From assembly GCA_964648765.1 (NCBI GenBank), contig CAZYLF010000001.1:480632-544631 (forward strand): 64,000 nt of DNA. The letters run 5' to 3'. Position numbers and translations under genes: made by a program. Of the stretch, positions 1,106-59,609 are shown piece after piece (position 1 is the first letter of the stretch; each line of letters begins with the position of its first letter). The notes below the pieces were generated by a model. That model made no database searches. It saw only the letters and a list, made by a program, of their open reading frames with translations, and was not told the DNA's origin. Source of the stretch: an uncultured Candidatus Saccharibacteria bacterium. Its GTDB lineage: Bacteria; Patescibacteriota; Minisyncoccia; Phycocordibacterales; JACOZG01.

Positions 1106-1711
1106 TTGGATTTATTTACTCATCACGCCTATTTGTGTGTAAGTGAACCAGTTTTTACTTTTGATCTTGGGCAGTTTACGGTTAGACGCTACGATTTACC
1201 GACGCTTAATATTGAAACTTCACGAGCGATAATTACTGAAGCAAGCTTCAGGCCGGAGGGAGATAAAATTGGGAAGATTTTTATAATTATTTTTGATAAA
1301 ACTACGCTGGAGGCAGGGGAGGCTTTGCTTAAAGTTTTAGAAGAACCACCAGCAGATACAAAAATTTTTATTGTTACGCAGGATCATTCATCACTGCCAC
1401 TTACCTTACTTTCGCGTTTAATGATTTGGGATACAGAGCCGGTGGCAAGTTCGGGGGATTTAAAAAGTAAAGTGAAGAAATTTGTGGAATCCAATCCTGA
1501 GGAAAGACTCACGCAAATCACAAACTTTTTTGACTGTGCTGAAGAGGCCATAAACGAGCTTGAGGTTTTAGTAAATAAAAAGTTTAAAGGTGAAGATCGC
1601 GCCCGCGCTCTAAGTCTCCTCATTGAATCCCGCACCTTCCGCCGCGAACCCTCAATGGTCCCCAAACTTTTATGGGAACACCTCGCCCTATCGCTACCGC
1701 TTGACAGGTAG
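1106..1711 (+). CDS. DNA polymerase III delta'-like clamp-loader subunit (HolB-like, degenerate P-loop, short)
   Basis: ALLKVLEEPPADTKIFIVTQDHSSLPLTLLSRL matches the LLKTLEEPP...SRC sensor-1 region of clamp-loader delta'/gamma subunits. No intact Walker A. Track start is TTG; true start uncertain. Confidence 0.45.
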   Translation: MDLFTHHAYLCVSEPVFTFDLGQFTVRRYDLPTLNIETSRAIITEASFRPEGDKIGKIFIIIFDKTTLEAGEALLKVLEEPPADTKIFIVTQDHSSLPLTLLSRLMIWDTEPVASSGDLKSKVKKFVESNPEERLTQITNFFDCAEEAINELEVLVNKKFKGEDRARALSLLIESRTFRREPSMVPKLLWEHLALSLPLDR

Positions 1712-1729
1712 ACTAAATGGGTGTATAAA
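1701..1729 (+). promoter_or_regulatory. Sigma70-like promoter (TTGACA-17nt-TATAAA) upstream of small ORF 1778..2041
   Basis: TTGACA at 1701-1706, 17-nt spacer, TATAAA at 1724-1729. Confidence 0.45.
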
Positions 1730-1777
1730 GTTATTTGGTTTGAGTAGAATTGTACTACTCTGAAGGAAATGGTTTGA

Positions 1778-2041
1778 ATGCAAAAGGAAAGGCAGAAAAT
1801 GAAAAATAGGAGGTATAAACCAGCTAACTTCGAATCTATCAGTGTGGCACTCAGGAACATGAAAACAATCGCCAAGAAGGAAGGTGGAAAAGTGGAGGTT
1901 ATCTTCAATTCCACCAAGATTACCGTTAGTGCCAATAGCAATTTGAAGTTCATCCAAAGGCAGTGGTTCAAAACACAATACCCCACCAGTTGGCGTGATT
2001 ACTATCCCGACGGCAAGAACTTTGGTCCCGTTTGGCACTAA
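1778..2041 (+). CDS. Hypothetical small basic protein
   Basis: 87-aa ORF bracketed by its own promoter and a strong rho-independent terminator. No recognisable domain. Confidence 0.4.
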   Translation: MQKERQKMKNRRYKPANFESISVALRNMKTIAKKEGGKVEVIFNSTKITVSANSNLKFIQRQWFKTQYPTSWRDYYPDGKNFGPVWH

Positions 2042-2694: not shown

Positions 2695-3780
2695 ATGACG
2701 ATCATTATTTTCATCGCGATTCTCGCTATTCTTATTATCTCGCATGAGCTTGGGCATTTTTTAATTGCTAAATGGTCTGGCTCAAGAGTGGATGAGTTTG
2801 GACTTGGTTTTCCTCCACGTATTTGGGGTATTAAAAAAGGCGAGACAATTTATTCGATAAACTGGATTCCGTTTGGGGGGTTTGTAAAAATTTTTGGTGA
2901 GGATCCCACTAAAGACGCGTCCACTGACGAGCGGAGTTTGGCTAATAAGCCTCGGCTTTGGCAGGCGGCAGTGCTCGTGGCTGGCGTAACGTTTAATATG
3001 ATTTTTGCCTGGCTTTTGTTTGCTATTGGTTTTGCCACAGTTGGTTTGCCAGTTTCAACTAGTGAATTACCTGCACATTATCAGGCCACAGATGTTTTAA
3101 CCACCGTAATTGCCGTTACTCCTGAGTCACCAGCCTTTGCTTCGGGGGTAAAACCAGGCGATAAAATTAAAGCGATTACTGTTGGCTCAAATCGGATTGT
3201 GACTCCAAAAGTGGAAGAGATTCAAGCCTTAATTAAAAATTCAAACAAAAAAGATGTGGTGCTAGAGTATGAGAGAAATCAAAAAAATGAGATCATCTCA
3301 ATTACTCCCAAAGAGCTTGCTACGGGTTTAGGTATAGGTGTGGCACTTGATGAGATTGGCAAACTTAAATTAAATGTCCCTCAAGCTTTAGTGGCGGGCT
3401 GGCAATCCACATGGACAGCCGCTGTTTTCACTGTTCAGAGTTTTGGTGATTTGTTTGCCAGTCTGGGTAAGGGCGATAGCGAAGTTTTAAAACAAGTGAG
3501 CGGCCCGGTAGGGATTGTGGGTTTGGTGGGCGAGGCCTCGAGTGCAGGTTGGGCTTCATTGATCCTTTTAACCTCGCTTATTTCAATCAACCTCGCAGTT
3601 CTAAATTTGATCCCATTCCCAGCACTTGATGGTGGGCGTTTGGCAATCTTATGTATTGAGGCGATCTCACGTCGAAAAATCAAAACCTCAATTGTAAATG
3701 GTATTAACCTCGTCGGCTTCTCTCTCCTTATCATCATGATGCTCGCTGTAACCTTCTCCGATATTGCCAAGCTTTTTTAG
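2695..3780 (+). CDS. rseP: RseP-like site-2 zinc metalloprotease (M50) with PDZ domain
   Basis: HELGHF HExxH motif in TM1, central PDZ-like segment, C-terminal LDGG motif. Confidence 0.85.
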   Translation: MTIIIFIAILAILIISHELGHFLIAKWSGSRVDEFGLGFPPRIWGIKKGETIYSINWIPFGGFVKIFGEDPTKDASTDERSLANKPRLWQAAVLVAGVTFNMIFAWLLFAIGFATVGLPVSTSELPAHYQATDVLTTVIAVTPESPAFASGVKPGDKIKAITVGSNRIVTPKVEEIQALIKNSNKKDVVLEYERNQKNEIISITPKELATGLGIGVALDEIGKLKLNVPQALVAGWQSTWTAAVFTVQSFGDLFASLGKGDSEVLKQVSGPVGIVGLVGEASSAGWASLILLTSLISINLAVLNLIPFPALDGGRLAILCIEAISRRKIKTSIVNGINLVGFSLLIIMMLAVTFSDIAKLF

Positions 3781-3812
3781 CGTTTTGACCTTGTTAAAAT
3801 ATTAGCGTAAGA

Positions 3813-5069
3813 TTGGGGCAAATGCGTCAAAGTACTTTACCCACCAAAACCCGCAAAGAAGCCCCAAATAATGAGGTGGCTAAAAATGCCAGTTTGTTGA
3901 TCCGAGCGGGATTTATCGCTAAGGAGCTATCCGGAGTCTACTCATATTTACCTTTAGGTCTTAAAGTTTTAAATAAAATAAATAATCTCATCCGTAAAGA
4001 GATGGAGGGTTTGGGCGCCACTGAAGTCCAGATGTCATCCCTTCAAAACATGGACACTTGGCGGCTGAGCGACCGTCACGAGCTTGATGTGTGGTTTAAA
4101 ACTAAACTTCGCGAGGGTGGTGAACTTGGTTTGGGTTGGACTCATGAGGAAGCGGTGACAACGATGATGAAGGATCACATTGGATCATATCGTGATTTAC
4201 CTCGGGCGATTTATCAAATTCAAACCAAGTTTAGGAATGAGGAACGCGCCAAGAGTGGACTCTTGCGTGGTCGAGAATTTTTAATGAAAGATATGTATTC
4301 ATTCCACGTAGATGAAAAAAGTTTGGATGAATTTTATGACAAAGTTAAAAGTTCATATTTAAAAATTTTTAAGGAGGTTGGTTTGGGTAAATCTACTTAC
4401 CTCACCGTGGCTTCAGGTGGCGCATTCTCTGAGTGGAGTCATGAGTTCCAAACTGTTTCTGAAACAGGTGAAGATACGGTTTATATCCAAGACGGGAGCG
4501 ACGTGGCGATTAATGATGAAGTTTATAGTGAGGAGGTGGCACAAAAGTTTGGTCTGGATCCAAAACGTTTAACCACTAAAAAAGCGATTGAAGTTGGTAA
4601 TATTTTTAAATTAGGCACACGTTTTAGCGAGCCAATTGGTTTGAAGTATGTAGATGAAAAATCAGAATCAAAACCAGTAATTATGGGTAGTTATGGTCTT
4701 GGGCCTTCGCGATTGATGGGAGTGATTGCTGAAACGCTGTCGGATGATAAGGGTTTGGTGTGGCCCAAGAGCGTGGCGCCATTTAAAGTTCAATTAATTT
4801 TGATAACCAAAAATAAAGACAGTGAGACTGTAAAAAAAGCGAACGAATTTTACGATAATTTGATAAAAAGAAATGTGGAAGTGCTATACGACGACCGTGA
4901 GGCCACCGCTGGCGAGAAGTTAGCCGATGCGGATTTATTTGGTATTCCGCATCGTTTGGTAATTAGCGATAGGAGTTTGGAGGCCGGCGGAGCAGAGTGG
5001 AAGGAGCGCACAGGGAGTGAGGCAAAGGTAATAAGTTTTGCGGAAGCGCTTAAAAAAATTAATGAATAA
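3813..5069 (+). CDS. proS: Prolyl-tRNA synthetase (short form, no editing insertion)
   Basis: N-terminal LLIRAGFI(A)KELSGVYSYLPLG resembles bacterial ProRS; class II motifs; 418 aa. Confidence 0.8.
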   Translation: MGQMRQSTLPTKTRKEAPNNEVAKNASLLIRAGFIAKELSGVYSYLPLGLKVLNKINNLIRKEMEGLGATEVQMSSLQNMDTWRLSDRHELDVWFKTKLREGGELGLGWTHEEAVTTMMKDHIGSYRDLPRAIYQIQTKFRNEERAKSGLLRGREFLMKDMYSFHVDEKSLDEFYDKVKSSYLKIFKEVGLGKSTYLTVASGGAFSEWSHEFQTVSETGEDTVYIQDGSDVAINDEVYSEEVAQKFGLDPKRLTTKKAIEVGNIFKLGTRFSEPIGLKYVDEKSESKPVIMGSYGLGPSRLMGVIAETLSDDKGLVWPKSVAPFKVQLILITKNKDSETVKKANEFYDNLIKRNVEVLYDDREATAGEKLADADLFGIPHRLVISDRSLEAGGAEWKERTGSEAKVISFAEALKKINE

Positions 5070-6126
5070 ATGGTTACAAAAAATTTATCGGGCGTTTTCG
5101 CCTGATATTGGTGTTGATTTAGGCACCGCCAACACGCTGGTGTATTTGGCAGGTCATGGGGTAGTAATTAATGAGCCAACCATTGTGGCGCTTAATGAAA
5201 AGACCGGCCGCCTGGTGGCGATCGGTAATGATGCCAAGCAAATGATCGGCCGCACGCCTGCGCACATTTCAGTGATACGCCCTTTGGTAGACGGCGTAAT
5301 TTCTAACTTTGAGATTACTGAAGAAATGCTTGCATATTTTATTCGTCGAGCGCGTAAAATGGATTCTAAAAAGTTTTTACGACCGAGAGTTTTGGTGGGC
5401 GTGCCATCGGGTATTACTAACGTGGAGATCCGGGCGGTGCGTGACGCGGTAAAAAACGCTGGCGCGAGAGAGGTGCACATTGTGGAGGAGCCAATGGCCG
5501 CAGCAATTGGAATTAAGATGCCGATCCATGATCCCGTGGGTAGTTTTATTGTGGACGTGGGTGGTGGCACTTCAGATATTGCCGTGATCTCTCTTGGCGG
5601 AATTGTGAAGTCAAAAAATTTACGAGTGGCCGGTGATCATTTAAATCGTGACATTATCGCTTATGTGCGAGATGAATTTAAAATTTTGTTAGGAGAGAAA
5701 ACGGCTGAGGAGGTGAAGCTTGCGATTGGCTCAATTTGGAATGAGGGTGAAGCGCTGGAGGCAATTGTGCGCGGTAGAGATTTGGTAACTGGTTTACCAA
5801 AAGAGGTGGTGCTCACCGATGCTGATATTAAAGAAGCAATTGCCAAATCAATCGTTCTCTTAATTGAGGGGGTTAAGGAGGTTTTGGAGGCTACCCCGCC
5901 AGAAGTAATTTCTGATGTGATGCATAAAGGTATTGTGCTAGTGGGTGGCGGTTCGTTGGTACGCGGACTTAGAGAAGTGCTTGAAAAGGAGTTAAAAATC
6001 CCTGTTCATATGTCTGATGACCCGCTTACCGCTGTTGTGCGAGGCACAGGTGTTGTGCTTGAGAGATTTGATAATTATGCAGAAATTTTAATTGAAGACG
6101 ATGACATTAGACAACAAGACGTTTAA
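5062..6126 (+). CDS. mreB: MreB paralog (actin-like, in mreBCD-mrdA operon)
   Basis: IGVDLGTANTLVY and DVGGGTSD motifs. ATG at 5062 overlaps the proS stop; the track ORF starts at an upstream TTG at 5038. Confidence 0.85.
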   Translation: MNKWLQKIYRAFSPDIGVDLGTANTLVYLAGHGVVINEPTIVALNEKTGRLVAIGNDAKQMIGRTPAHISVIRPLVDGVISNFEITEEMLAYFIRRARKMDSKKFLRPRVLVGVPSGITNVEIRAVRDAVKNAGAREVHIVEEPMAAAIGIKMPIHDPVGSFIVDVGGGTSDIAVISLGGIVKSKNLRVAGDHLNRDIIAYVRDEFKILLGEKTAEEVKLAIGSIWNEGEALEAIVRGRDLVTGLPKEVVLTDADIKEAIAKSIVLLIEGVKEVLEATPPEVISDVMHKGIVLVGGGSLVRGLREVLEKELKIPVHMSDDPLTAVVRGTGVVLERFDNYAEILIEDDDIRQQDV

Positions 6127-6931
6127 GGATTCGTATACTTTTCGCCGTAAATCAAATTATGGCTGGCAAAAAGTTATTTGGTTAGTTGCAAGTTTAATTT
6201 TTGTGTATTTTGGTGGGCGCTATTTTTTTAATTTACTCCGACCAACAGCGGTAGATATTTCTCGCCCAATTTTAAAAGCTGAAAATGGTGCATATGAGAC
6301 GGCCGACACTTGGCAGGGTTTATTTAAATCAAAAGTAAGTCTTGAGGCAGAAAACGATCGTCTGAAAACAGAACTCGAGATTCTTCAATTACAAAGTCTT
6401 GGTTATGGAATTTTAATTGAGGAGAATAATCGTCTAAGAGAAATATTGGGACGTAGGAGTGGACAAGATACACCCATAATTGCTTCGATTTTAGCTACAC
6501 CTGATGATTTTCCTTACGGTTTAATTTTGATTGATGTTGGAAGAAGTAATAGTACTCGTTTAATAAAAGTTGGTGATGATGTAAGGGTGGGGAGTAATGT
6601 GATATTAGCGCGAATTGTGGAAGTGAGCGACACATACTCTAAGGCGAGATTGCTCTCGGCCAGTGGTGAGACCACGCCGGTTATAATTGGCGGTGACAAT
6701 CTGGCCGCGGAAGCCAAAGGTTTAGGTGGGGGTAACTTTTCTGTATCGCTTCCTCGTGGTGTGAACGTGGAAATCGGAGATCAAATTAAATTACCGAGTG
6801 AGAAAGTGGAATTAGTGCTTGGTGTAGTGGCTGAGATTAAAGGCGAACCAAGTGACCCATTTCAGGAAGTATTTTTCAAAAGTCCAATTAATGCAAATGA
6901 GGTAAGAAATGTTGAAATTTATGTTAATTAG
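6092..6931 (+). CDS. mreC: Rod shape-determining protein MreC
   Basis: Position after mreB; N-terminal TM plus coiled-coil (ENDRLKTELEILQ...ENNRLREILG) and a beta-rich C-terminus. Confidence 0.7.
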   Translation: MKTMTLDNKTFKDSYTFRRKSNYGWQKVIWLVASLIFVYFGGRYFFNLLRPTAVDISRPILKAENGAYETADTWQGLFKSKVSLEAENDRLKTELEILQLQSLGYGILIEENNRLREILGRRSGQDTPIIASILATPDDFPYGLILIDVGRSNSTRLIKVGDDVRVGSNVILARIVEVSDTYSKARLLSASGETTPVIIGGDNLAAEAKGLGGGNFSVSLPRGVNVEIGDQIKLPSEKVELVLGVVAEIKGEPSDPFQEVFFKSPINANEVRNVEIYVN

Positions 6932-7187
6932 ATTATTTTCATTTCTGACTATGTTTTTTGTGGCAATCCTATTACCGGCTTGGGGTGTACTCACAGTGTC
7001 ATTAATTGGTCTTGTCTTGTTTGATAAATTTTACGAAGCAATTTTTGCTGGGTTTTGGTTTGATCTACTGTATGGTTCAAGTGCGCTTTCAGTTACCACA
7101 ACATTTTATTTAACACTTATTTCCATTTTGATGTTCTTTTTAGTAATTTTTTTGAAACGAATTGTTTACACTCATGCTCAAATCTAA
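6909..7187 (+). CDS. mreD: Rod shape-determining protein MreD (small polytopic membrane protein)
   Basis: 92-aa hydrophobic ORF between mreC and the PBP2 gene. Confidence 0.5.
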   Translation: MLKFMLIRLFSFLTMFFVAILLPAWGVLTVSLIGLVLFDKFYEAIFAGFWFDLLYGSSALSVTTTFYLTLISILMFFLVIFLKRIVYTHAQI

Positions 7188-8868
7188 AAAGAATTACTCA
7201 ATTGATCCTGATGAAATTTTCCTCGACTCCACTAATTTACCATCTCTTGATGATCAACAATTTGAAGGGAGATTGGAAAAGCCAATTGCTCGGTCAAGTT
7301 TTTATCTTTTAGGTTCGATTTTCATACTAATTTCACTTGGATTTACAATTAAAGCAGCAAATCTACAATTAATTAAAGGCGACGAATTTGCCACTCGAAG
7401 CCAAAATAATACCTTACGCCACATTCCACTTTTTGCAGAGCGCGGGGTAATTTATGACCGTAATAAAGTTGAGCTTGCTAGAAATAATCCATCCCGAGAA
7501 TATTCTACAACTACTGGACTATCTAATCTCTTGGGTTACATCAGTTATCCATCTGAAGATGATTTAAAACAGACAAATTTCAATCACAAGGAGTTAATTG
7601 GTAAGGATGGAGCCGAAAAGCTTTTCGATACAGAGCTTAAGGGTGTTGTCGGTACCAAAATTGAGGAAGTAGATGTGCAGGGTGAAGTTCGTACAGATTA
7701 TATTCTTGTTGAGCCCAAAGATGGCCAAGAGGTCATCCTCTCGATAGATTCACGAGTACAAGGTGAATTGGCAAGGCTAATTGAGAATTTGGCCCAAGAT
7801 AAAGGCTTCGGTGGTGGGGCTGGAGTAGTTTTAGATATTAAAAGCGGGGAAATATTGTCCATTGTGACTTATCCCGAGTATGATTCTCAAATCTTGGCCG
7901 ATGGTAAGGATGTAAAAAAAATTCAAGACTTTTTGACTAACCCAAGTAATCCATTTCTTAATCGAGCGTTATTTGGTCTCTATACCCCCGGTTCAATTTT
8001 TAAACCAATTGTAGCTGTAGGTGCTTTAAGCGAGGGGATCATCGATCCAGAAAAAAAGATTTTGAGCACGGGCCAACTTGAATTACCAAATCCATATTTC
8101 CCCGATAAGCCATCAATTTTTAAAGACTGGAAAGCGCACGGTTATGTAAATATGCGAGATGCAATTGCGGTGTCCTCAAACGTTTATTTTTATAACATTG
8201 GTGGCGGATTTGAAAACCAAAAGGGTTTAGGAATTAAACAAATTGAGCACTACGCTAGGCTATTTGGTTTGGGGGAGTCCATGAATGTGGATGGAATTGA
8301 AACAGCAAAAGGTGTTGTAGCCAACCCCATCTGGAAGGCTGAAAATTTTGAAGATAAAGATTGGCGTGTGGGTGACACTTATCATACCTCAATTGGTCAG
8401 TACGGCATGCAGGTTACGCCACTCCAAATGGCGCGAGCGATTGGCGCAATTGCTAATGGCGGCGTGCTGGTGACTCCTACTTTTTTAAAAACCGAAAGGT
8501 TAAATGTTTCTGGCGCAGGGGGTATTAAGCTCCCGCTAAAAGATGAAAATTTAAAAATTGTGCGGGAGGGGATGCGACAAGGTGTGGAGAAAGGCACCGC
8601 CACCAGCCTTTCAGTACCGTTTGTAAAAGTGGCCGCCAAAACTGGGACGGCGGAAATTGGTTTGGTGAAAGCTGATGTGAACTCTTGGGTAGCGGGCTTC
8701 TTCCCATATGATGATCCGCAGTTTGCTTTTGCTGTGGTAATGGAAAAAGGTAGGAGAGAAAATTTAATTGGTAGCCCATCTATAATGCGAGCACTTTTAG
8801 ACTGGATGAATCACAACACTCCTGAGTACTTTAATAAAGAGATTGACCCGAGCCTCGATCCGAGGTAA
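7162..8868 (+). CDS. mrdA: Penicillin-binding protein 2 (elongasome transpeptidase)
   Basis: SxxK (SIFK), SxN and KTGTAE motifs; N-terminal TM; operon context mreBCD. Confidence 0.85.
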   Translation: MFTLMLKSKKNYSIDPDEIFLDSTNLPSLDDQQFEGRLEKPIARSSFYLLGSIFILISLGFTIKAANLQLIKGDEFATRSQNNTLRHIPLFAERGVIYDRNKVELARNNPSREYSTTTGLSNLLGYISYPSEDDLKQTNFNHKELIGKDGAEKLFDTELKGVVGTKIEEVDVQGEVRTDYILVEPKDGQEVILSIDSRVQGELARLIENLAQDKGFGGGAGVVLDIKSGEILSIVTYPEYDSQILADGKDVKKIQDFLTNPSNPFLNRALFGLYTPGSIFKPIVAVGALSEGIIDPEKKILSTGQLELPNPYFPDKPSIFKDWKAHGYVNMRDAIAVSSNVYFYNIGGGFENQKGLGIKQIEHYARLFGLGESMNVDGIETAKGVVANPIWKAENFEDKDWRVGDTYHTSIGQYGMQVTPLQMARAIGAIANGGVLVTPTFLKTERLNVSGAGGIKLPLKDENLKIVREGMRQGVEKGTATSLSVPFVKVAAKTGTAEIGLVKADVNSWVAGFFPYDDPQFAFAVVMEKGRRENLIGSPSIMRALLDWMNHNTPEYFNKEIDPSLDPR

Positions 8869-8878
8869 TATTACGCGG

Positions 8879-9343
8879 ATGCAAAAAGATAAAAATTACT
8901 TTAGCCCCGAGAAGTATGAGGAGCTAAAAGAGGAGTTAGTGGAATTATCAACCATTAAGCGTCGAGAGGTAGCTGAGCGTTTAGACTACGCTAAGTCACT
9001 TGGAGATCTATCAGAAAATGCTGAGTATCATGCGGCTCGTGAGGATCAGTCAGAACTTGAAAGTCGCATTGCGGCGCTAGAGGTAATGCTTAAGGACTCT
9101 GAAATTATTAAAGATAAACATGGCAGCACAGTGGAGGTAGGCACAACACTTACGGTACGAAAAAAAGATGGCAAGGAAGAGAAGTATACGATTGTGGGTG
9201 CTGAGGAAGTAGACATGGCCAATCACCGAATCTCGTTTCAGTCTCCTTTAGGTTCTAGTTTGCTTGGTAAAAAAGGTGGCAGCACTGTGGCCGTAGACAC
9301 TCCTCGTGGTAAAACAGAGTACACAATCGTCTCAATAAATTAA
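8879..9343 (+). CDS. greA: Transcription elongation factor GreA
   Basis: LGDLSENAEYHAAREDQ coiled-coil tip with acidic residues; FKBP-like C-terminal domain. Confidence 0.9.
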   Translation: MQKDKNYFSPEKYEELKEELVELSTIKRREVAERLDYAKSLGDLSENAEYHAAREDQSELESRIAALEVMLKDSEIIKDKHGSTVEVGTTLTVRKKDGKEEKYTIVGAEEVDMANHRISFQSPLGSSLLGKKGGSTVAVDTPRGKTEYTIVSIN

Positions 9344-9354
9344 CATAAAGCCAA

Positions 9355-10824
9355 ATGGCATCATTAGAGGAAATTAGGGAGGAACGTTTAAAAAAAATAA
9401 ACAAGCTTCGTGAAGAAGGTGTGGAGGTGTACCCAGCGGAATCAAATTATACCCACACTTTACTTGAGGCCAGTGAAGATTTTGAAAGTTTGAGTGAGAC
9501 CAAGGAGGTTCTCACGCTTGCGGGCAGAGTTATAGCCAAGCGCGGGCAGGGGGCGGTAAGTTTTTTGGATCTTAAAGATGGTACTGGTAAACTCCAGGCG
9601 CTTTTTCATCGTGAAAAAATTACCGAGAAAAATTGGAATCAATTTCAAGAGTCTTTGGATGTGGGAGACTTTGTGGAAGTGAAGGGATTTTTATTCAAAA
9701 CTAAAAGTGAGGAGAAAACAGTGGAGGTAAGTGAGTGGAGGATGCTAGCTAAAAGTTTGCGACCATTACCAGACAAATGGCATGGACTTAAAGATACAGA
9801 GGAGCGATTCCGCCGTCGCTATCTCGACTCCCTAATGGACGACGAGGTTAAGAATAGATTTATTTTGCGTTCTCGCTTAATTGCGGGTTTTAGAACAATG
9901 CTTGATAAAGCTGGTTACCTGGAAGTAGAAACGCCGGTTCTTCAAAATTTACCTGGCGGCGCTAGTGCTTTGCCATTTATTACGCATCACAATGCGCTTG
10001 ATATTGATTTATACTTGCGGATTTCACCAGAACTTTATTTAAAGAAAATGTTGGTGGGTGGCTTTGACCGAGTGTATGAGTTTGCAAGGGATTTTAGAAA
10101 TGAGGGGATTGATGTGACGCATAATCCGGAGTTTACGGTGCTTGAGTATTATGAGACTTACAGTGATGCCACTAAGCAGATGGCGTTTGTGGAGAAGTTA
10201 TTTAAAGGGATTTTAAAGTCCTTAGATTTAAAGTCTGTGGTCACCTATGGCGAACATCAGATTAATTTTAAACCAAAGTTTAAAGTAGTCACATATTTTG
10301 ACTTACTTAAAAAACACGCATTAATAAATGATCCAGGTAAAATTGAGGTAAAGGATTTGGCTTTAAAAGCTTCGCAGTTGGGTATTAAGCTTGAGGGTAA
10401 TGAGGCCAAGGAAGTGCTTTTTGATCTGATTTATAAAAAAGTTTGCCGACCAAAGTTAGTTGAACCAACATTTGTCACAGATTATCCTAAAGATTATTTG
10501 CCGTTAGCAAAAGCTAAACCAGAGAATCCGGAATTGGTGGACGCCTTCCAACTTATTGTGGGAGGAGTGGAGCTGGTGAAAGCCTTTTCAGAACTTAATG
10601 ATCCGCTTGATCAACGTGAGCGCTTTGCCGCTCAGGAGAAGCAGAAGGCCGAAGGTAATGCCGAAGCTCAACCTAATGATGAAGACTTTTTAGAGGCGCT
10701 TGAATATGGCATGCCACCAGCCGGCGGCGTGGGTATTGGGATTGATCGCTTAGTGATGCTACTTACTAACACGCACAACATCCGCGAAGTTATCTACTTC
10801 CCAACTCTCAGGCCAAAGCAATAG
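9355..10824 (+). CDS. lysS: Lysyl-tRNA synthetase (class II)
   Basis: OB-fold N-terminus; class II motifs FRNEG, LEYYETYSD, GMPPAGGVGIGIDRL. Confidence 0.9.
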   Translation: MASLEEIREERLKKINKLREEGVEVYPAESNYTHTLLEASEDFESLSETKEVLTLAGRVIAKRGQGAVSFLDLKDGTGKLQALFHREKITEKNWNQFQESLDVGDFVEVKGFLFKTKSEEKTVEVSEWRMLAKSLRPLPDKWHGLKDTEERFRRRYLDSLMDDEVKNRFILRSRLIAGFRTMLDKAGYLEVETPVLQNLPGGASALPFITHHNALDIDLYLRISPELYLKKMLVGGFDRVYEFARDFRNEGIDVTHNPEFTVLEYYETYSDATKQMAFVEKLFKGILKSLDLKSVVTYGEHQINFKPKFKVVTYFDLLKKHALINDPGKIEVKDLALKASQLGIKLEGNEAKEVLFDLIYKKVCRPKLVEPTFVTDYPKDYLPLAKAKPENPELVDAFQLIVGGVELVKAFSELNDPLDQRERFAAQEKQKAEGNAEAQPNDEDFLEALEYGMPPAGGVGIGIDRLVMLLTNTHNIREVIYFPTLRPKQ

Positions 10825-45088: not shown

Positions 45089-46087
45089 TTAATTCACCCC
45101 CACAAGTTCGCGCACTTTTTTCATCTTTGTATCAGCTACTTGCTTTGCCTTCTCTCCTCCCAACTCTAAAATCTTCCTAATCTTATCTGTGTCCTTTGCA
45201 ATCTCCTCCCGTCGTGCGCGAAGTGGCGCAAGAAATGCATTTAAATTTTTAAACAAAATCTCCTTAGATTCTTTATAACCAATCCCGCCTTCCACGTACC
45301 TTTTCTTCAATTCCGGCAAATCATTTTGGCTAACTAATTTATGTAAAGCATACACATTGCACTCTTCAGGATTCTTCGGCTCCTCGGGCGTTTTAGAATC
45401 AGTTTTAATACTCATTACTAATTGTTTTAGCTCCGTCTCGTTTACGAAAAGTGGAATGGTATTTTTATAACTCTTACTCATCTTCTGACCGTCGAGTCCG
45501 GGCACCACGGCTACGTCTGGCATGATGAGCGGTTCAGGTAATTTAAAGCCTTCGCCATACACGCGATTAAACTTCTCCGCTGTGTCGCGAGCGATCTCAA
45601 TGTGTTGCTTCTGATCCGCGCCCACTGGCACCACGTCAGCATCGTAGAGTAAAATGTCAGCCGACATGAGCAATGGGTAATCAAAGAGCCCCACGCTCAC
45701 TTCATGATTTTTAGCTTCCGCATCCTTAAACGCATGCGCGCGCATTAAGTAAGGCATGGTGGTGAGACAATTGAAGATCCATGTGAGTTCCGTATGTGCC
45801 GGCACGGATGATTGTTTAAAAAGTGTGACTTTTTCTGGATCCAAACCAATTGCGAGATAATCAATCGCGAGATCAAGAGTGTCTTGGCGTAATTCTGCCG
45901 CATTTTGCTCTTTTGTAATTGAGTGGTAGTCAGCCAGCATAAAAAAGCAATTATAATTATCTTGCAGGTCCACAAATTGCTTCATCGCGCCGAAATAATT
46001 GCCCACATGTGGCCGACCAGTGGGCTTTACGCCGGAAAGGAGAATCTTTTTATCAGAATTCATGATTTTAATCATAACAAACTTCAA
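45089..46087 (-). CDS. trpS: Tryptophanyl-tRNA synthetase
   Basis: SGVKPTGRPHVGNY (HIGH-type) and KMSKS motifs. Confidence 0.9.
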   Translation of the reverse strand: MKFVMIKIMNSDKKILLSGVKPTGRPHVGNYFGAMKQFVDLQDNYNCFFMLADYHSITKEQNAAELRQDTLDLAIDYLAIGLDPEKVTLFKQSSVPAHTELTWIFNCLTTMPYLMRAHAFKDAEAKNHEVSVGLFDYPLLMSADILLYDADVVPVGADQKQHIEIARDTAEKFNRVYGEGFKLPEPLIMPDVAVVPGLDGQKMSKSYKNTIPLFVNETELKQLVMSIKTDSKTPEEPKNPEECNVYALHKLVSQNDLPELKKRYVEGGIGYKESKEILFKNLNAFLAPLRARREEIAKDTDKIRKILELGGEKAKQVADTKMKKVRELVGVN

Positions 46088-46099
46088 GCCTCGCCAATA

Positions 46100-46128
46100 T
46101 TGACAAATAAACAGTAGTATGCTAACCT
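46100..46128 (+). promoter_or_regulatory. Promoter of the TTGACAAAT family (TTGACA-17nt-TAACCT)
   Basis: TATTGACAAATAAACA at 46098-46113. Confidence 0.5.
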
Positions 46129-46223
46129 ATATGCAGTTGGTTAGAGAAGAGTGGAATATGGCTCTGATGAGCCGTTCTCTAGCCTAGTCGCCTCAATGAT
46201 TGAGGCTTTGACAGGAGAATATC

Positions 46224-46988
46224 ATGCAGTTCATCAAGAGGTTTGGTGTTTGTATCGCGGTACTTTCCGCGGTCGTGCTTTCCGGGGGGTTGCAGAAGGC
46301 GACTGCAAATCCGGTGTACATGAGCTCGGGGTACGGAACTGACGGTTCCGGCAGTGGCCACATGGACGGTCAGACGATTGTTCCGTACCGAGTTCACAAC
46401 TCGGTGCAGGTTACCCCGTTTTATAACGGTGACAATCAGCTCATCGGCGCCAACTGGTATGCGAGTTTGACTATGGAAGGTTCACTGAACAGCGATGGCA
46501 CGATTACGCAGGAAATGCGTGATCTCGCGGCCAATCAGATGAACATCCATTCTCACTATCGCATCAACCAAATCAATTTCGTCGAGGGTGATGAATATGG
46601 ATACTATCTCATTGATGGTATTGCAGAAGTCATTCTTGACGGGAGCGTCGGCGCCAACATCTACACATACACAGACGGTGGTGGCAAGGGTGTAATGGGC
46701 CTCGGAGAAACTTTCGAGTCTTACGTTGGGTACATGAATGCTAACGTTAACGTCAACGGTCCTGGTATGTCCATCGATAACATTTCGATGCACTTCCGCG
46801 AGTACCAAGACGGGAACGTGCCGAAGCCCGACTGGTGGGGTGGTGATTATGCCGCTGATATTGACATCAGCGGGTATGTGGATTTCGCCGGTGGTGGTCT
46901 TGGGATCAGCCGTGTCGTTGTTCCCGAGCCGGCTTCATTAGCGCTCCTTTTGATCGGCGCTGTGGCTGGACTACGCCGCAAGAAGTAA
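46224..46988 (+). CDS. Secreted PEP-CTERM-anchored protein (high-GC gene)
   Basis: N-terminal signal peptide; Gly/Asn-rich beta-type body; C-terminal VPEPASLALLLIGAVAGLRRKK equals the PEP motif plus TM plus basic tail. GC is clearly above the genome background. Confidence 0.7.
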   Translation: MQFIKRFGVCIAVLSAVVLSGGLQKATANPVYMSSGYGTDGSGSGHMDGQTIVPYRVHNSVQVTPFYNGDNQLIGANWYASLTMEGSLNSDGTITQEMRDLAANQMNIHSHYRINQINFVEGDEYGYYLIDGIAEVILDGSVGANIYTYTDGGGKGVMGLGETFESYVGYMNANVNVNGPGMSIDNISMHFREYQDGNVPKPDWWGGDYAADIDISGYVDFAGGGLGISRVVVPEPASLALLLIGAVAGLRRKK

Positions 46989-47032
46989 TGGAGGGGGGAA
47001 GCACCTAGCTTAATGGGGGTTAGCTAGGCAAG

Positions 47033-47076
47033 GCGGCCGGTGTGAGGATTTATCCTTGCACTGGCCGTTTTTTTAT
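47033..47076 (+). terminator. Rho-independent terminator
   Basis: CGGCCGGTG...CACTGGCCG stem followed by TTTTTTT. Confidence 0.65.
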
Positions 47077-47127
47077 GGTAGAGTACTTCCAGTTGGTTTT
47101 TCCCAGTTCTTTTGAAAGGAGTCTACA

Positions 47128-47397
47128 GTGAAGAAACCATCGGCCTTTGGGATGTCTCCCACAATGATTTTGTTTTTTATAATTTTTGTTATCATAGCTG
47201 GTGTGATCACAGGCTGTGATCGGGAGTTGGTAACCTACTACTATCCTATCCCCTCGTATTATGATGATACGGCGTATGAGGTTGTGGACATTGTAGATAT
47301 TCATTATGTGCCGTATGATCCATTTTTCTACTCTGAGATCCATTACTACGATGATTGCCCTTACGACCTATTCTATTGCAAGCAAATAAAAAAATGA
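47128..47397 (+). CDS. Small Tyr/Asp-rich putative lipoprotein (89 aa)
   Basis: AAGGAG RBS, GTG start, signal peptide ending ...VITGC (lipobox-like), Y/D-rich mature part with Cys. Confidence 0.4.
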   Translation: MKKPSAFGMSPTMILFFIIFVIIAGVITGCDRELVTYYYPIPSYYDDTAYEVVDIVDIHYVPYDPFFYSEIHYYDDCPYDLFYCKQIKK

Positions 47398-57349: not shown

Positions 57350-57364
57350 GCCAATAGTTTAACA

Positions 57365-57405
57365 TAAAAAAACCGGCAACGACTCACATAGTGAATCGCT
57401 GCCGG
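57365..57405. repeat. Direct repeat copy 1 (A-tract + CCGGCAACGA...TCGCTGCCGG hairpin)
   Basis: AAAAAACCGGCAACGACTCACATAGTGAATCGCTGCCGG; near-identical copy at 59430..59468. Confidence 0.7.
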
Positions 57406-57467
57406 CCGAGGCTGGTGGGCAAATTCGCGCTCCAGCTTGCAAGGTAAACTTAAAAGATCAAATGGTT

Positions 57468-57512
57468 GGCCAGCGCAGGAAACGTCTCCTTGGAAACACT
57501 CCTGCGCTGGCC
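57468..57512. repeat. Perfect 13-bp inverted repeat with 19-nt spacer
   Basis: GGCCAGCGCAGGA-N19-TCCTGCGCTGGCC; no flanking T-run, so it is not a canonical terminator. Confidence 0.6.
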
Positions 57513-57681
57513 CCGCTGCCGAGTAGCTGATATGGATTTTTGCACATCTGAGTTTCGATGTCAATTTTTCTTACCCACACTTTTTAGGTTTTTAATTTCA
57601 CCCTTTTTGCTTATAAACCTAAAATCTGGTAGTTTAACGATAGTTTGGTCCTAGAAATTGCTCATGTTTGAGAGGGTGAAA

Positions 57682-57834
57682 ATGACTCAACAAATGTGGA
57701 CTCTAATCACGATATGTGCCGTATTGCTTTTGTTTTGTCTCAAACGATGGCTTGGTAACAATCCCAAATTCATGAAATGGCTTGAAGATGAGTATGATGA
57801 AAATGGTCCAGAAAATCGAAAGGAGAAAAAATGA
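57682..57834 (+). CDS. Small membrane protein (50 aa), translationally coupled (ATGA overlap) to the next gene
   Basis: GAGAGGGTGAAA RBS; hydrophobic LITICAVLLLFCL; below the 60-aa track cutoff. Confidence 0.3.
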   Translation: MTQQMWTLITICAVLLLFCLKRWLGNNPKFMKWLEDEYDENGPENRKEKK

Positions 57835-58094
57835 AGACGACAGAGATGCCTAGCGGTTCGAGTTGTCCGCATTGTAGTGGCCCAGTCTTAGCCGATATTG
57901 TGGCTGAGGAAGTGACACCGGCAGGGACAGCGGAAAAAGAAAAGATCACAAAGGTTTCTGCAACGTATCGATGCGCCAATGAGAACTGTGCGACGAGTTT
58001 CGCACACCCTCCCGGTCAACCAGATTGGTTACCGAATTTGAAGGATTCAATTATAAAAGAATTTGCCGGTAAGGTGACCGACAAAATGAAATAA
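57831..58094 (+). CDS. Small zinc-ribbon protein (87 aa)
   Basis: CPHCSG ... CANENC (CxxC-N41-CxxxC). Confidence 0.45.
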   Translation: MKTTEMPSGSSCPHCSGPVLADIVAEEVTPAGTAEKEKITKVSATYRCANENCATSFAHPPGQPDWLPNLKDSIIKEFAGKVTDKMK

Positions 58095-58106
58095 GTACGA
58101 CCCCTA

Positions 58107-58134
58107 CCCGCGCTACACCAGCGCGGGTTTTTTG
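58107..58134 (+). terminator. Rho-independent terminator
   Basis: CCCGCGCT...AGCGCGGG stem followed by TTTTTT. Confidence 0.7.
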
Positions 58135-58232
58135 TATCTTAAAATTGACTGGCACTTATATAAATGGTAGTTATTTAAGTGGAATTAGTAAGAAACCAAT
58201 GTGGTTTCTTTGACATAGTTTTTGGGTAGAAA

Positions 58233-58934
58233 GTGAGGAATAGTATGTTACCAAGTAGCGCAAAAACCTCTTTGGAACTCCGCACAGAGGCGGCAACACT
58301 TCGTTTTTTGGGTAACCAAATAAGAGAGGGTACCCCCATTTGCGAAGCAATCACAGAAACAGTAAAAAACTTCCCTGATTTTTCGGAAGCTCTCCAGACC
58401 GCCCTTCATCAAATCCGGGAGGGAGACTCATTCCATACTGGCTTGATTGGTTATGAATGGTGCTTCCAAGATTTTGTCCCCGGTATGATCGGAATTGGGG
58501 AAGAAACAGGTCTACTGGACGTGACGTTACTCCAAGCGGCTAATTTAGTCGATCAAATGGCCACCGTGGTTGAGGGCGGAAAGAAGTCCAGTCGAGATCA
58601 GATTGCAGCCATGATTGACTTTTGGATGCTCGCGGAACTCATGAGCGCCGGTTTACCCCTTGTGCGCTGTTTCGAAATTTTGGAACAGACGTCAAGAAGT
58701 CGCTCAAAGAGTTATTGGGGTGTTTTGAGTGGTATGATTGCGCACCAGAGCCTGAGTATAGTAATGGGTTGGCATGCTGAGCACTATCTCCTATTCAACA
58801 CAAACGATGTGAGTAAAATGTTTCAAGTTGAAACCAAGTATATGGCTGATCATGAGGCCCGACGCAAAGATGAGCTACGACCGCAAGTGATCCGAGATAT
58901 TTACGAACGACATTATAAGGAGATCTTCGGTTAG
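58233..58934 (+). CDS. Truncated PilC/GspF-like protein (single T2SSF domain, no TM platform)
   Basis: FPDFSEALQ...FVPGMIGIGEETGLLDVTLLQAANLVDQ matches the F-P-x-(L/M)-x3-(M/I)-x3-GE-x-(S/T)G-x-LD core of T2SSF domains. Second-repeat start AELMSAGLPLVRCFEILEQ. Only 233 aa. Confidence 0.45.
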   Translation: MRNSMLPSSAKTSLELRTEAATLRFLGNQIREGTPICEAITETVKNFPDFSEALQTALHQIREGDSFHTGLIGYEWCFQDFVPGMIGIGEETGLLDVTLLQAANLVDQMATVVEGGKKSSRDQIAAMIDFWMLAELMSAGLPLVRCFEILEQTSRSRSKSYWGVLSGMIAHQSLSIVMGWHAEHYLLFNTNDVSKMFQVETKYMADHEARRKDELRPQVIRDIYERHYKEIFG

Positions 58935-59063
58935 TAATAACCGACCAGCTCAGAATTTAGAACCGCTTTGGCAAACACCAAAGCGGTCTTTTTTTGTTCA
59001 TGTAAATATGCTAAAGTGCATTTGGAAATTGGTCTCGAAACGCTCTCTTGAAAGGAGGGGTAT

Positions 59064-59333
59064 ATGTGCCAACATCAGGCCAATGGAGAAAGAAGCTTCT
59101 GGATCTTGTTGTGGGTAGTTACTATGTTTACGTCCGCAATTCCCTTTGCTAGGGGCGAGCGTGGAATACTCGACAAGGTTGGACTAGGAATCGGTATTCT
59201 CATGGCAGTCATTCTAATTCTGGGTTTTGCTTTTGAATTTTATTGTCACAGGCATCCAGAATTTGTAGAACAAATGGAAAATGAATTTCAAAATGAGGAA
59301 GAAGAGCGGCGAAAAAAACTAGAGACCAAATGA
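59064..59333 (+). CDS. Small 2-TM membrane protein (89 aa) with charged C-terminus
   Basis: GAAAGGAGGGG RBS; two hydrophobic helices; terminator follows. Confidence 0.4.
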   Translation: MCQHQANGERSFWILLWVVTMFTSAIPFARGERGILDKVGLGIGILMAVILILGFAFEFYCHRHPEFVEQMENEFQNEEEERRKKLETK

Positions 59334-59354
59334 AGAAGTAGTGTCCCTACACAC

Positions 59355-59385
59355 AACCCGTCATTAATTTGGCGGGTTTTTTTAT
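59355..59385 (+). terminator. Rho-independent terminator
   Basis: ACCCG...CGGGT stem followed by TTTTTTT. Confidence 0.5.
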
Positions 59386-59429
59386 TTAACATTCTTTTCA
59401 CGACCGTTAAAACATTACACACTTTACAT

Positions 59430-59468
59430 AAAAAAACGGCAACGAGTCACATAGTGAATCATTGCCGG
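59430..59468. repeat. Direct repeat copy 2; also acts as minus-strand terminator of the glycogen-synthase-like gene
   Basis: AAAAAAACGGCAACGAGTCACATAGTGAATCATTGCCGG. On the minus strand this is a hairpin followed by a T-run, 3' of ORF 59610..60812. Confidence 0.7.
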
Positions 59469-59609
59469 TTATAAATAAAGTTGAGGGGGAAGCAGTGGCA
59501 ATAAGCCTCACTAGGCACCAGATAAAGGCCCTAATCTCCCGCAATCCCCCCCTATCACATCTGAATCTAATATATTATAAAAAAATATTTTTGCAATATT
59601 TTAATAGCT

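Follow-up and report, generated by a model that had tools for sequence, protein, structure and literature searches.

The question raised by this locus is why a CPR bacterium should carry, beside trpS, a gene of high GC content for a protein with the C-terminal sorting tail of diderm bacteria, and whether an enzyme that reads this tail accompanies it. The stretch of DNA analysed, hereafter the window, comprises 64,000 nucleotides of a Patescibacteria/Paceibacteria MAG, and the relatives of its TrpS all come from Patescibacteria/Paceibacteria MAGs as well. The gene probably encodes a native PEP-CTERM surface protein of the Paceibacteria (CPR/Patescibacteria), of a family that has been inherited vertically beside trpS in this clade. 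The features on which this reading draws, in positions of the window, are:

45089-46075, minus strand: trpS, conserved and divergently transcribed, the neighbour by which the syntenic slot is recognised (synteny)
46100-46128, plus strand: sigma-70-type promoter, with -35 element TTGACA at 46100-46105, a 17-nt spacer and extended -10 element TGc-TAACCT at 46120-46128
46136-46223, plus strand: structured 5′ UTR with two hairpins (RNA fold) and a Shine-Dalgarno sequence, AGGAG, at 46213-46217
46224-46988, plus strand: ORF and CDS of the PEP-CTERM protein (254 aa), which belongs to the family so far restricted to Paceibacteria (ORF, HMM matches, family alignment)
46224-46310, plus strand: predicted signal peptide, residues 1-29, cut after ATA (inspection)
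46284-46289, plus strand: G6 homopolymer in signal-peptide codons, G8 in the sister species (sequence comparison)
46311-46913, plus strand: ectodomain of ~200 aa, predicted all-beta with ~10 long strands (AF2, family alignment A4)
46914-46985, plus strand: PEP-CTERM sorting signal, VVPEPAS followed by the TM helix LALLLIGAVAGL and RRKK (TIGR02595, PF07589, AF2)
47030-47078, plus strand: intrinsic-terminator-like hairpin of 19 pairs (9 G-C), then a T-run (sequence)
47128-47397, plus strand: 89-aa Tyr-rich lipoprotein gene with lipobox ITGC, the downstream neighbour, with no functional tie implied (ORF)

The protein begins with MQFIKRFGVCIAVLSAVVLSGGLQKATA / NPVY, with the predicted cleavage between the two, and the signal peptide claimed in an earlier note on this DNA is present by inspection as a predicted Sec-type signal with a basic n-region (K5/R6), a hydrophobic core and an ATA / N cleavage site. 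N-termini are alignable across members of the PEP-CTERM family. The C-terminus, VVPEPASLALLLIGAVAGLRRKK, holds the tail at residues 231-254, which runs up to the stop codon and presents the motif, the TM helix and the basic cluster in the expected order. The same note had called this tail a textbook PEP-CTERM signal and had named the TIGR02595 model beforehand as a possible refutation; the description survives, as the tail exceeds the cut-off of 16 bits for TIGR02595 (score 23.5) and that of 20.7 bits for PF07589 (score 23.9). There is no LPXTG-type motif before the TM helix, where the sequence is VVPEPAS, and no LPXTG model among the NCBIfam matches. Against the curated full-length PEP-CTERM families (PepA NF033554, NF038129, NF038120, XDP1 NF041927 and others) the window protein falls below the cut-offs, with best scores of 10-17 bits (cut-offs 50-125) that come from the tail region alone. 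The AF2 model, a confident one (pLDDT 85.4, pTM 0.70), places a beta domain between an N-terminal helix at residues 3-19, within the signal peptide, and a C-terminal helix at residues 236-253, within the tail. Foldseek comparison of the ectodomain model with the PDB and with BFVD (predicted viral protein structures) returned no match, and the motifs dPxPGniGtF, NxWxGxGPxPxW and SGxIT are common to the ectodomains of the family (alignment A4).

The expression signals around the gene are of the native type that had been claimed for them: a TTGACA/TGc-TAACCT promoter, the 9-mer TTGACAAAT that recurs in the window, and behind the gene a 19-bp hairpin with a T-run. Five copies of TTGACAAAT occur in the window (1.3 expected), all on the plus strand and each ahead of a small ORF for a secreted or membrane protein, and four other small ORFs have the same promoter layout. 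It should be noted that a generic promoter scan missed this promoter, the -10 hexamer of which fits at 3/6 positions only. The leader folds at -33.7 kcal/mol (z = -3.4 vs shuffles). A riboswitch or ribozyme suggested by the string CUGAUGAG in the leader was rejected, the Rfam match reaching 18 bits against a threshold of 49 bits.

Homologues were sought with a HMMER profile, which took in the tail, scanned against 1.84 billion representatives, and the 83 matches include ~16-20 full-length homologues (~250 aa), the others being tail-only. Members of the family are PEP-CTERM proteins of about 220-270 aa, for which there is no library description. Every full-length homologue with usable context in this set lies in a CPR-type genome among housekeeping genes; members outside the trpS slot lie in compact MAG gene runs, yebC-ruvC-dnaN-dnaA and rpsP-khpA-[gene]-trmD-rpoBC. 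By these sequence contexts the family appears confined, to date, to Paceibacteria (CPR) of ultra-small size. Against the A4 HMM the score of the window protein is 207.5 bits (E = 1e-61), a value that is partly circular as the protein is a seed sequence; an independent pairwise comparison with the syntenic protein of lineage L002 gave 30% identity (E = 4e-8), and the profile matches P0005, P0007, P0008 and P0009 have E values from 4e-19 to 1e-12. Word-indexed searches with the window protein (5.8 billion sequences) and with the L002 orthologue returned only the queries themselves and the pseudogene of the sister species, and a profile from the 19-member alignment was swamped by tail-only candidates in the word-indexed database. 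Among the matches listed for a VPEPA pattern in metagenome contigs there were only unrelated PEP-CTERM proteins. L099 was rejected as a family member, its large beta-helix-type proteins being from a high-GC organism. TIGR02595 is matched by 16 of the 19 members. PEP is invariant in 19/19 and PEPA[ST] nearly so, and pairs of members share on average 46-53% identity in the tail vs 22-23% in the ectodomain, an apparent invariance of the tail that is inflated by its inclusion in the retrieval profile. On one CPR contig a further protein, encoded 3 kb from the family gene, ends in a VPDP / TM / RRRR tail.

The slot divergent from trpS is occupied in six lineages, namely this genome, the sister species (L082-85), where the copy is a remnant, L114 (TrpS 78% identical, family protein 27%), L002 (TrpS 74%, family protein 30%), L093 (TrpS 71%) and L090 (TrpS 70%). 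A small lipoprotein ORF also follows the copy in L002, and none follows the copy in L093. Between the gene and its sister copy dS is 0.94 and dN/dS 0.09, and the dS values of trpS, uvrA and uvrB (0.88-1.02) and of neighbouring genes overall (0.88-1.86) are of the same order. The gene is a long-resident, fast-evolving one and not a recent import. The copy in the sister species has been inactivated, by a frameshift because its G tract is G8 instead of G6 and by a 518-bp deletion in which the tail is lost together with the promoter and signal peptide of the Tyr-rich lipoprotein gene; the protein is therefore dispensable in the sister species. The window contains seven G runs of at least six, and the tract is not a feature of the family; phase variation through it would be speculative.

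Three readings of the locus give the gene a foreign origin, and the composition of the gene is what commends them. The contrast with the flanks that had been claimed for it was confirmed, with a GC content of 52.4% for the gene, 43.2% for trpS and 38.9% for the Tyr-rich lipoprotein gene; together with a GC3 of 60.8% this is the highest among the 51 ORFs of the window (mean GC 43.0%, sd 3.0; mean GC3 40.2%, sd 7.0), at about +3 sd. High expression as the source of the GC3 was considered and rejected as unsupported, since rplI, the sole ribosomal protein gene of the window, has a low GC3 and frr and greA are ordinary or low. The abrupt rise in composition at 46.2 kb and fall at 47.0 kb could mark a GC-rich foreign fragment inserted into a CPR contig by chimeric assembly, which had been named beforehand as a refuting condition. 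This is hardly credible, as the exact protein is found on four contigs, one of them an independent 84-kb Logan assembly of SRR14271332 with 100% identity across the gene and over 20.8 kb in all, the same junctions recur in nine sister-species contigs from several runs, and orthologues hold the same position, in the same order, in the MAGs of five other lineages. The suggestion of a recently acquired horizontal cargo gene under a host promoter could point to the same top values of GC and GC3, and to the position of the gene at a synteny breakpoint (trpS/uvrA), but it did not hold up and is very improbable: the slot is shared by six lineages, dS is no different from that of the genes on either side, dN/dS is 0.09, the sister species retains ~91% identity in promoter and leader, every full-length homologue with usable context comes from a CPR-type genome, and a donor-like homologue is absent from both the 5.8 billion and the 1.84 billion sequences. 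The composition itself tells against recent transfer, with an excess over the flanks of 3-13 points in 9/9 genomes with an intact copy. The GC and GC3 excess is a maintained trait of the family and no scar of recent transfer, because it recurs in the nine intact copies and, more weakly, in the sister-species remnant. A local GC excess thus need not signal recent horizontal transfer.

The third of these readings is an ancient acquisition, by which an ancestor of the Paceibacteria clade would have obtained the gene from a diderm, possibly its host and possibly together with a sortase, and the family would have inherited the GC-rich codons of the donor. Elsewhere PEP-CTERM is a trait of diderms (PMC1569441), the codon usage of the gene looks foreign (A-ending codons 9% vs 26%, AAG 100%, CAG 78%), several members show weak similarity beyond the tail to PepA- and NF038129-type families (24-26 bits vs 65-80), and the distribution is patchy, with the family gene at the trpS locus in only 1 of the 80 GTDB representatives that have this locus. 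Against it, no full-length homologue was identified outside CPR, a donor signature would have decayed over a dS near 1 since the split from the sister species unless it was actively maintained, and the excess is seen in every host across genome GC contents of 42% to 57%. We consider such an acquisition rather unlikely, and vertical inheritance of a native family remains the preferred account of the locus.

The absence of an exosortase from the window, the remaining claim of the earlier note, was upheld, the proteins with at least four TM helices that were scanned there being a P-type ATPase, RseP/M50, FtsW and MraY. A further ORF of this kind, at 1384-1998 on the minus strand, overlaps a holB-like gene on the opposite strand and is taken to be a shadow ORF. 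The hunt covered the 64-kb window, 10 kb to its left and ~80 kb flanking the family genes of five other CPR genomes. Neither an exosortase nor an archaeosortase turned up in these ~156 kb, which surround family genes of six CPR genomes and amount to under a quarter of each genome. All ORFs with at least four TM helices were assigned to families other than exosortase, except a 281-aa membrane protein of L002 and the window ORF at 1384-1998. Likewise, in 80 trpS loci from Paceibacteria none of the multi-TM proteins (24 clusters) matched an exosortase model; those with scores are transporters, histidine kinases, MraY, FtsW, Lgt-like proteins and similar, and a few have no family. The window has one PEP-CTERM tail, the only one in 74 kb of this genome.

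How the tail works is where two readings meet. It could be a plain TM anchor in a cell with no exosortase, its VPEP a relic or a structural element such as a helix cap or a membrane-interface motif. This would suit the lack of an exosortase in the DNA searched, the single substrate per sampled genome, the minimal genomes of CPR and a literature search that found no paper tying exosortase or PEP-CTERM to CPR, and it is plausible without being likely, since a plain anchor would have no need of the motif, which is kept in every member despite ~22% identity in the ectodomain, and since exosortase genes can be unlinked from their substrates and the sample amounts to under a quarter of each genome. 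The retention of the tail over a fast-diverging ectodomain is an argument for a cognate processing enzyme, and the strong conservation of VPEPA[ST] suggests a recognising enzyme, exosortase- or archaeosortase-like, encoded elsewhere. The lineage is indeed an unexpected one for an exosortase system, CPR being presumed monoderm. With less than even confidence, we propose a PEP-CTERM-type sorting or processing pathway with essentially one dedicated substrate per genome in these presumably monoderm cells, served by a highly divergent exosortase or archaeosortase homologue as yet unrecognised in CPR or by an enzyme of unrelated origin that recognises VPEPA[ST], with the protein as a main determinant of host or phage interaction.

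CPR have tiny genomes and an episymbiotic lifestyle and are not known to possess an outer membrane (cryo-ET literature). For a native surface protein in such a cell, the gene would be transcribed alone, from the strong sigma-70 promoter through the structured leader to the intrinsic terminator, the product would be exported by Sec, and the beta-rich ectodomain of ~200 aa would be displayed outside the cell, where the VPEPAS / TM helix / RRKK signal at the C-terminus may hold the protein or be its site of processing. Surface display, a role in interaction and the existence of a processing enzyme are all putative here, and the fast divergence of the ectodomain would fit exposure of the protein and its contact with a host or phage. 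As the surface proteins by which CPR attach to their hosts are, to our knowledge, largely unknown, the family offers a useful candidate that is easily recognised, strongly expressed by its signals and rapidly diversifying.

Among the closest counterparts is the PEP-CTERM/exosortase (EpsH, XrtA) system that Haft et al. (2006, PMC1569441) described for diderm bacteria producing EPS. Its classical hosts without exception possess an outer membrane and genes for EPS, and they carry a median of eight PEP-CTERM proteins per genome (PMC1569441). The window protein shares with this system the signal peptide, a VPEP motif, TM helix and Arg/Lys cluster above both cut-offs, an ectodomain without characterised homologues and a tail better conserved than the remainder. 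It differs in its host, a member of the CPR/Paceibacteria with a genome of ~0.5 Mb or more, in the single substrate per genome sample, and in its surroundings: no EPS locus is adjacent, the window holding no such locus (glycogen-type GH15, GH57 and GT5 genes are present), and in the DNA reached neither EpsI nor PrsK/R/T genes were found, as with exosortase. NCBIfam PepA (NF033554, the Zoogloea flocculation protein), NF038129 and NF038120 resemble the family in size (~190-260 aa) and layout, and several members match them weakly over ~100 residues past the tail; unlike members of those families, however, the family here scores 17-26 bits against cut-offs of 65-80, and the window protein matches in the tail only. 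Anchoring by LPXTG and sortase in monoderms offers the same succession of motif, TM helix and basic tail in an envelope of the same kind, and sortases have been reported in CPR; in contrast, VPEPAS lacks the Thr-Gly scissile pair and the tail is of the PEP-CTERM type by its scores.

The best functional analogy for a PEP-type tail on a CPR envelope may be the archaeosortase A / PGF-CTERM system of archaea, reportedly described by Haft et al. in 2012, in which an exosortase-family enzyme of a single-membrane cell recognises a C-terminal signal of three parts and processes S-layer or surface glycoproteins. The analogy is qualified by a motif that is PEP and not PGF, by a bacterial host and by the lack of an archaeosortase homologue in the DNA searched. 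A conserved, vertically inherited PEP-CTERM family in CPR lies outside the diderm, EPS-producing environmental bacteria for which the trait was defined: either the sorting system reaches a new type of envelope and a new phylum, as archaeosortases do in the archaea, or a PEP tail can work without an exosortase.

The gene examined here encodes a PEP-CTERM protein, a known protein kind, in an unexpected phylum. It is a member of a new and rapidly evolving family that has so far turned up only in genomes of Paceibacteria type. As read from the sequence, the N-terminus of its product is organized like a Sec signal peptide (MQFIKRFGVCIAVLSAVVLSGGLQKATA / NPVY), and the C-terminus consists of VVPEPAS-LALLLIGAVAGL-RRKK, in which the motif is followed by a transmembrane (TM) helix and a basic cluster. 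Both curated HMMs recognize this tail (TIGR02595, 23.5 bits against a cut-off of 16; PF07589, 23.9 bits against 20.7), and the signal peptide and true PEP-CTERM tail proposed in the earlier note, which had named TIGR02595 as the check, are borne out. It is the only PEP-CTERM tail in the window (n = 1), and the protein matches none of the full-length NCBIfam PEP-CTERM families, with tail-only scores far under the cut-offs. The protein is a predicted secreted surface protein, anchored or processed at its C-terminus. The elements of the locus are:

From 46100, + strand: promoter read from sequence, -35 TTGACA at 46100-46105, 17-nt spacer, extended -10 TGc-TAACCT
46136-46223, + strand: 5' UTR with two stable hairpins (fold -33.7 kcal/mol, z = -3.4)
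46224..46988, + strand: PEP-CTERM protein CDS (ORF), 254 aa
46284-46289: G6 homopolymer in signal-peptide codons; G8 in the sister species (sister contig L082, ~10061-10068)
~46688-47205: 518 bp deleted in the sister species (L082 10440-10460), flanked by a short TGGTG repeat (microhomology)
47030-47078, + strand: terminator-like 19-bp hairpin and T-run, 3' of the stop codon
47128-47397, downstream of the PEP-CTERM gene: Tyr-rich lipoprotein gene, 89 aa, lipobox ITGC

The promoter and terminator had been described as native in type, and both descriptions hold; additionally, a Shine-Dalgarno AGGAG lies just 5' of the ATG. Five copies of the 9-mer TTGACAAAT lie in the window, always on the + strand (40651, 41865, 42729, 46100 and 50088), where 1.3 would be expected. 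In every case the 9-mer supplies the -35 element of a promoter (TTGACA / 17 nt / (TGn) -10), and ~100 nt downstream lies a small ORF (61-93 aa) for a secreted or membrane protein. Several of these ORFs start MKW, and together they resemble a group of small envelope proteins, strongly promoted and dispersed among minus-strand housekeeping genes. The leader contains a CUGAUGAG string, and a search of 46136-46223 against Rfam gave one sub-threshold match only (Mu-gpT-DE, 18 bits vs 49). The gene is native and monocistronic, and its expression signals are strong. The mature lipoprotein encoded downstream is 22% Tyr (YYYPIPSYYDD...HYYDDCPYDLFYC) and had no match in a Pfam search; a small lipoprotein ORF (8792-8995, IGGC lipobox) also directly follows the family gene at L002, a locus in a GTDB representative.

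The window belongs to a Patescibacteria/Paceibacteria MAG. Neighboring genes in the window include murG, ftsW, mraY, scpAB, aspS, trpS, uvrA, uvrB, tgt, GH15 and GH57, and the closest 80 TrpS loci among GTDB species representatives all (80/80) derive from Patescibacteria/Paceibacteria (Parcubacteria) MAGs, the best being 74% identical. The exact protein was found on four contigs, the longest of 553,057 bp, and a Logan assembly of SRR14271332 matches two parts of the window at 100% identity, a 20.8-kb stretch centered on the gene and an 11.1-kb stretch at the left edge. A chimeric join, against which the earlier note had advised checking, is rejected by this independent assembly and by the recurrence of the junctions in other species. 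Elsewhere, ~2.2 kb between the GH57 and GT4/GT5 genes (57350-59609), missing from the same site in the sister species, holds a 233-aa T2SSF/PilC-like fragment (58233-58934) beside small ORFs and could represent either an insertion or a pilus gene in decay. In L112, which covers 10 kb to the left of the window, lies a four-gene cluster (3376-8681; 228, 281, 533 and 686 aa) with no Pfam match. Its 533-aa protein is secreted and has repeated STNY(R/E/Q) motifs, and its 686-aa protein combines a secreted N-terminal half with several TM segments toward the C-terminus; the cluster may be a further locus for a surface structure.

The earlier note had advised a homology search and a look at the taxonomy of the best hits. 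Word-indexed searches with the window and L002 proteins returned the sister copy only and nothing further. A HMMER profile built from the same two proteins had 83 matches among 1.84 billion representatives; ~16-20 of these are full-length (210-267 aa) and share the layout, and the others align in the tail only and include annotated Planctomycetota PEP-CTERM proteins. All family members with usable genomic context lie in CPR-type genomes, where the probable assignment of L115, L118 and L086 to the CPR draws on gene content and accession series. The distribution is patchy, as the trpS-flanking gene is present at only one (L002) of the 80 GTDB loci.

Loci of the family genes, with TrpS identity to the window and GC of gene / flanks
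Window: divergent from trpS; 52.4% / 42.3%
L114: divergent from trpS, TrpS 78%; P0068, 27% identical to the window protein; 53.5% / 44.9%
L002: divergent from trpS, TrpS 74%; 243 aa, tail VVVPEPATLVMLGLGGVGTVWRKRRRLA, 30% identical, E = 4e-8; 52.2% / 46.7%
L093: divergent from trpS, TrpS 71%; P0009; gltX...murG-ftsW-mraY-scpBA-aspS-trpS block wholly conserved; 61.3% / 49.1%
L090 (Hainich groundwater): divergent from trpS, TrpS 70%; P0007; 53.1% / 48.8%
L089: 57.0% / 44.4%
L115 (MAG GCA_964567425.1): between yebC-ruvC and other housekeeping genes; 55.2% / 46.9%
L118 (MAG GCA_016181425.1): between khpA and trmD, upstream of rpoBC; 60.2% / 52.4%
L086 1-16385 (GCA_964455675.1, CAYVYK010000007.1): P0035 among consecutive small ORFs without annotation; 60.4% / 57.2%
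Sister remnant: 45.7% / 42.0%

A PaaX_M-like neighbor protein is 55% identical between L118 and L093. P0035 is surrounded by ~28 small ORFs without a Pfam match and adjoins a 932-aa protein with Vault/MVP-shoulder domains, an unusual context, perhaps a mobile or hypervariable region.

An alignment of 19 family sequences, including the window protein, shares the signal peptide, the motifs dPxPGniGtF, NxWxGxGPxPxW and SGxIT, and a C-terminus of short linker, VPEPA[ST]L, TM helix and Arg cluster, often with a final ...[RN]x[IV][AG]. This extension past the cluster (e.g., RERNLIA, ERNPIG, HNRIA) is conserved in many members (P0005, P0009, P0028, P0037, P0044, P0049 and others), and the window protein stops at RRKK without it. 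TIGR02595 recognizes 16 of the 19 at E <= 0.01, and no member scores high enough to pass as any full-length NCBIfam family. On average, pairs of members are 22-23% identical in the ectodomain and 46-53% identical over the last 25 residues, with PEP invariant (19/19), albeit in members found with a profile that contained the tail. Ectodomain identity falls from 84% where TrpS is 90% to 27% where TrpS is 78%, far more steeply than in housekeeping proteins, a pattern typical of exposed proteins subject to diversifying pressure or to allele replacement.

In composition the gene (GC 52.4%, GC3 60.8%) is the outlier among the 51 ORFs of the window (mean GC 43.0%, sd 3.0; mean GC3 40.2%, sd 7.0), and the excess lies mostly in the third base of codons. 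Codons ending in A account for 9% vs 26% in the background, NNC is favored over NNT, Lys is always AAG and Gln is CAG in 78%. The observation of a gene GC-richer than its flanks is upheld, and indeed what the earlier note observed, as opposed to how it interpreted it, is confirmed in every detail. The interpretation as horizontally acquired cargo does not fare as well. The sister species, known from nine Logan contigs of several runs (TrpS 90%, AspRS 94% and UvrA 96% identical), has the same gene order (trpS <-> gene -> uvrA), ~91% identity in promoter and leader, and 81% DNA identity over the first 125 mature codons. Over these codons dS is 0.94 and dN/dS 0.09, and the dS is comparable to that of trpS (1.02), uvrA (0.90) and uvrB (0.88), so the gene has been resident under purifying selection as long as its neighbors. 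Wherever the copy is intact (nine genomes), its GC is above that of the surroundings and its GC3 equals or exceeds the local maximum; the sister remnant retains a smaller GC excess. Because a dS of ~1 since the sister split should have erased an unmaintained donor signature, the excess has been maintained; it is a family trait kept by selection or biased gene conversion, and is no sign of recent transfer. Recent transfer is rejected, given neighbor-like dS, the same slot in relatives and the family-wide GC excess. A simple link from high expression to high GC3 is unsupported, as rplI, the sole ribosomal protein gene in the window, has a GC3 of 0.32.

The sister copy is itself broken twice, by a G-tract frameshift and the 518-bp deletion. 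The G8 tract puts the mature domain out of frame with the signal peptide, which may reflect slipped-strand phase variation or mere decay; such G runs do not characterize the family, and G6 in its place would give back a perfect signal peptide. The deletion takes out the C-terminal 100 residues, the PEP-CTERM tail and the terminator, along with the promoter and signal peptide of the lipoprotein gene, of which the lipobox Cys (GCDRE) and a diverged, out-of-frame Tyr/Cys-rich mature part remain.

Two readings of how the tail is used were weighed. The window encodes no exosortase, as had been claimed: the proteins scanned there that have at least four TM segments comprise a P-type ATPase, RseP, FtsW and MraY, and a further such ORF (1384-1998, minus strand), which overlaps an opposite-strand holB-like gene, is presumably a shadow ORF. 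Nor did an exosortase turn up in the adjoining 10 kb on the left, in the 11-21 kb flanks of the family genes at L002, L093, L086, L115 and L118, or in 24 clusters of multi-TM proteins from the 80 Paceibacteria loci. The tail may act as an anchor without processing, a reading to which we give somewhat less than even credence. The ~156 kb from six family-bearing genomes is too small for a call of absence, and since the tail is conserved, a cognate processing enzyme is plausible, though none was found in the sequence reached. More than one substrate in the L115 genome is hinted at by an unrelated secreted protein 3 kb from the family gene, a VPDP / TM / RRRR variant that fails TIGR02595:

L115 6452-7039, - strand: second secreted protein, 195 aa, ending ...GVPDPTTLVLLGASSVMLAKRRRRG

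That these bacteria possess a PEP-CTERM-type sorting or processing pathway is a proposition to which we give the same credence as to the anchor-only reading, and the balance is assigned to neither. No paper linking exosortase or PEP-CTERM with the CPR was found in the library searched. As defined by Haft et al. (PMC1569441), PEP-CTERM is confined to bacteria that possess both an outer membrane and EPS genes, and an EpsH homologue is always present; their genomes carry a median of eight substrates each, compared to the one tail in this window.
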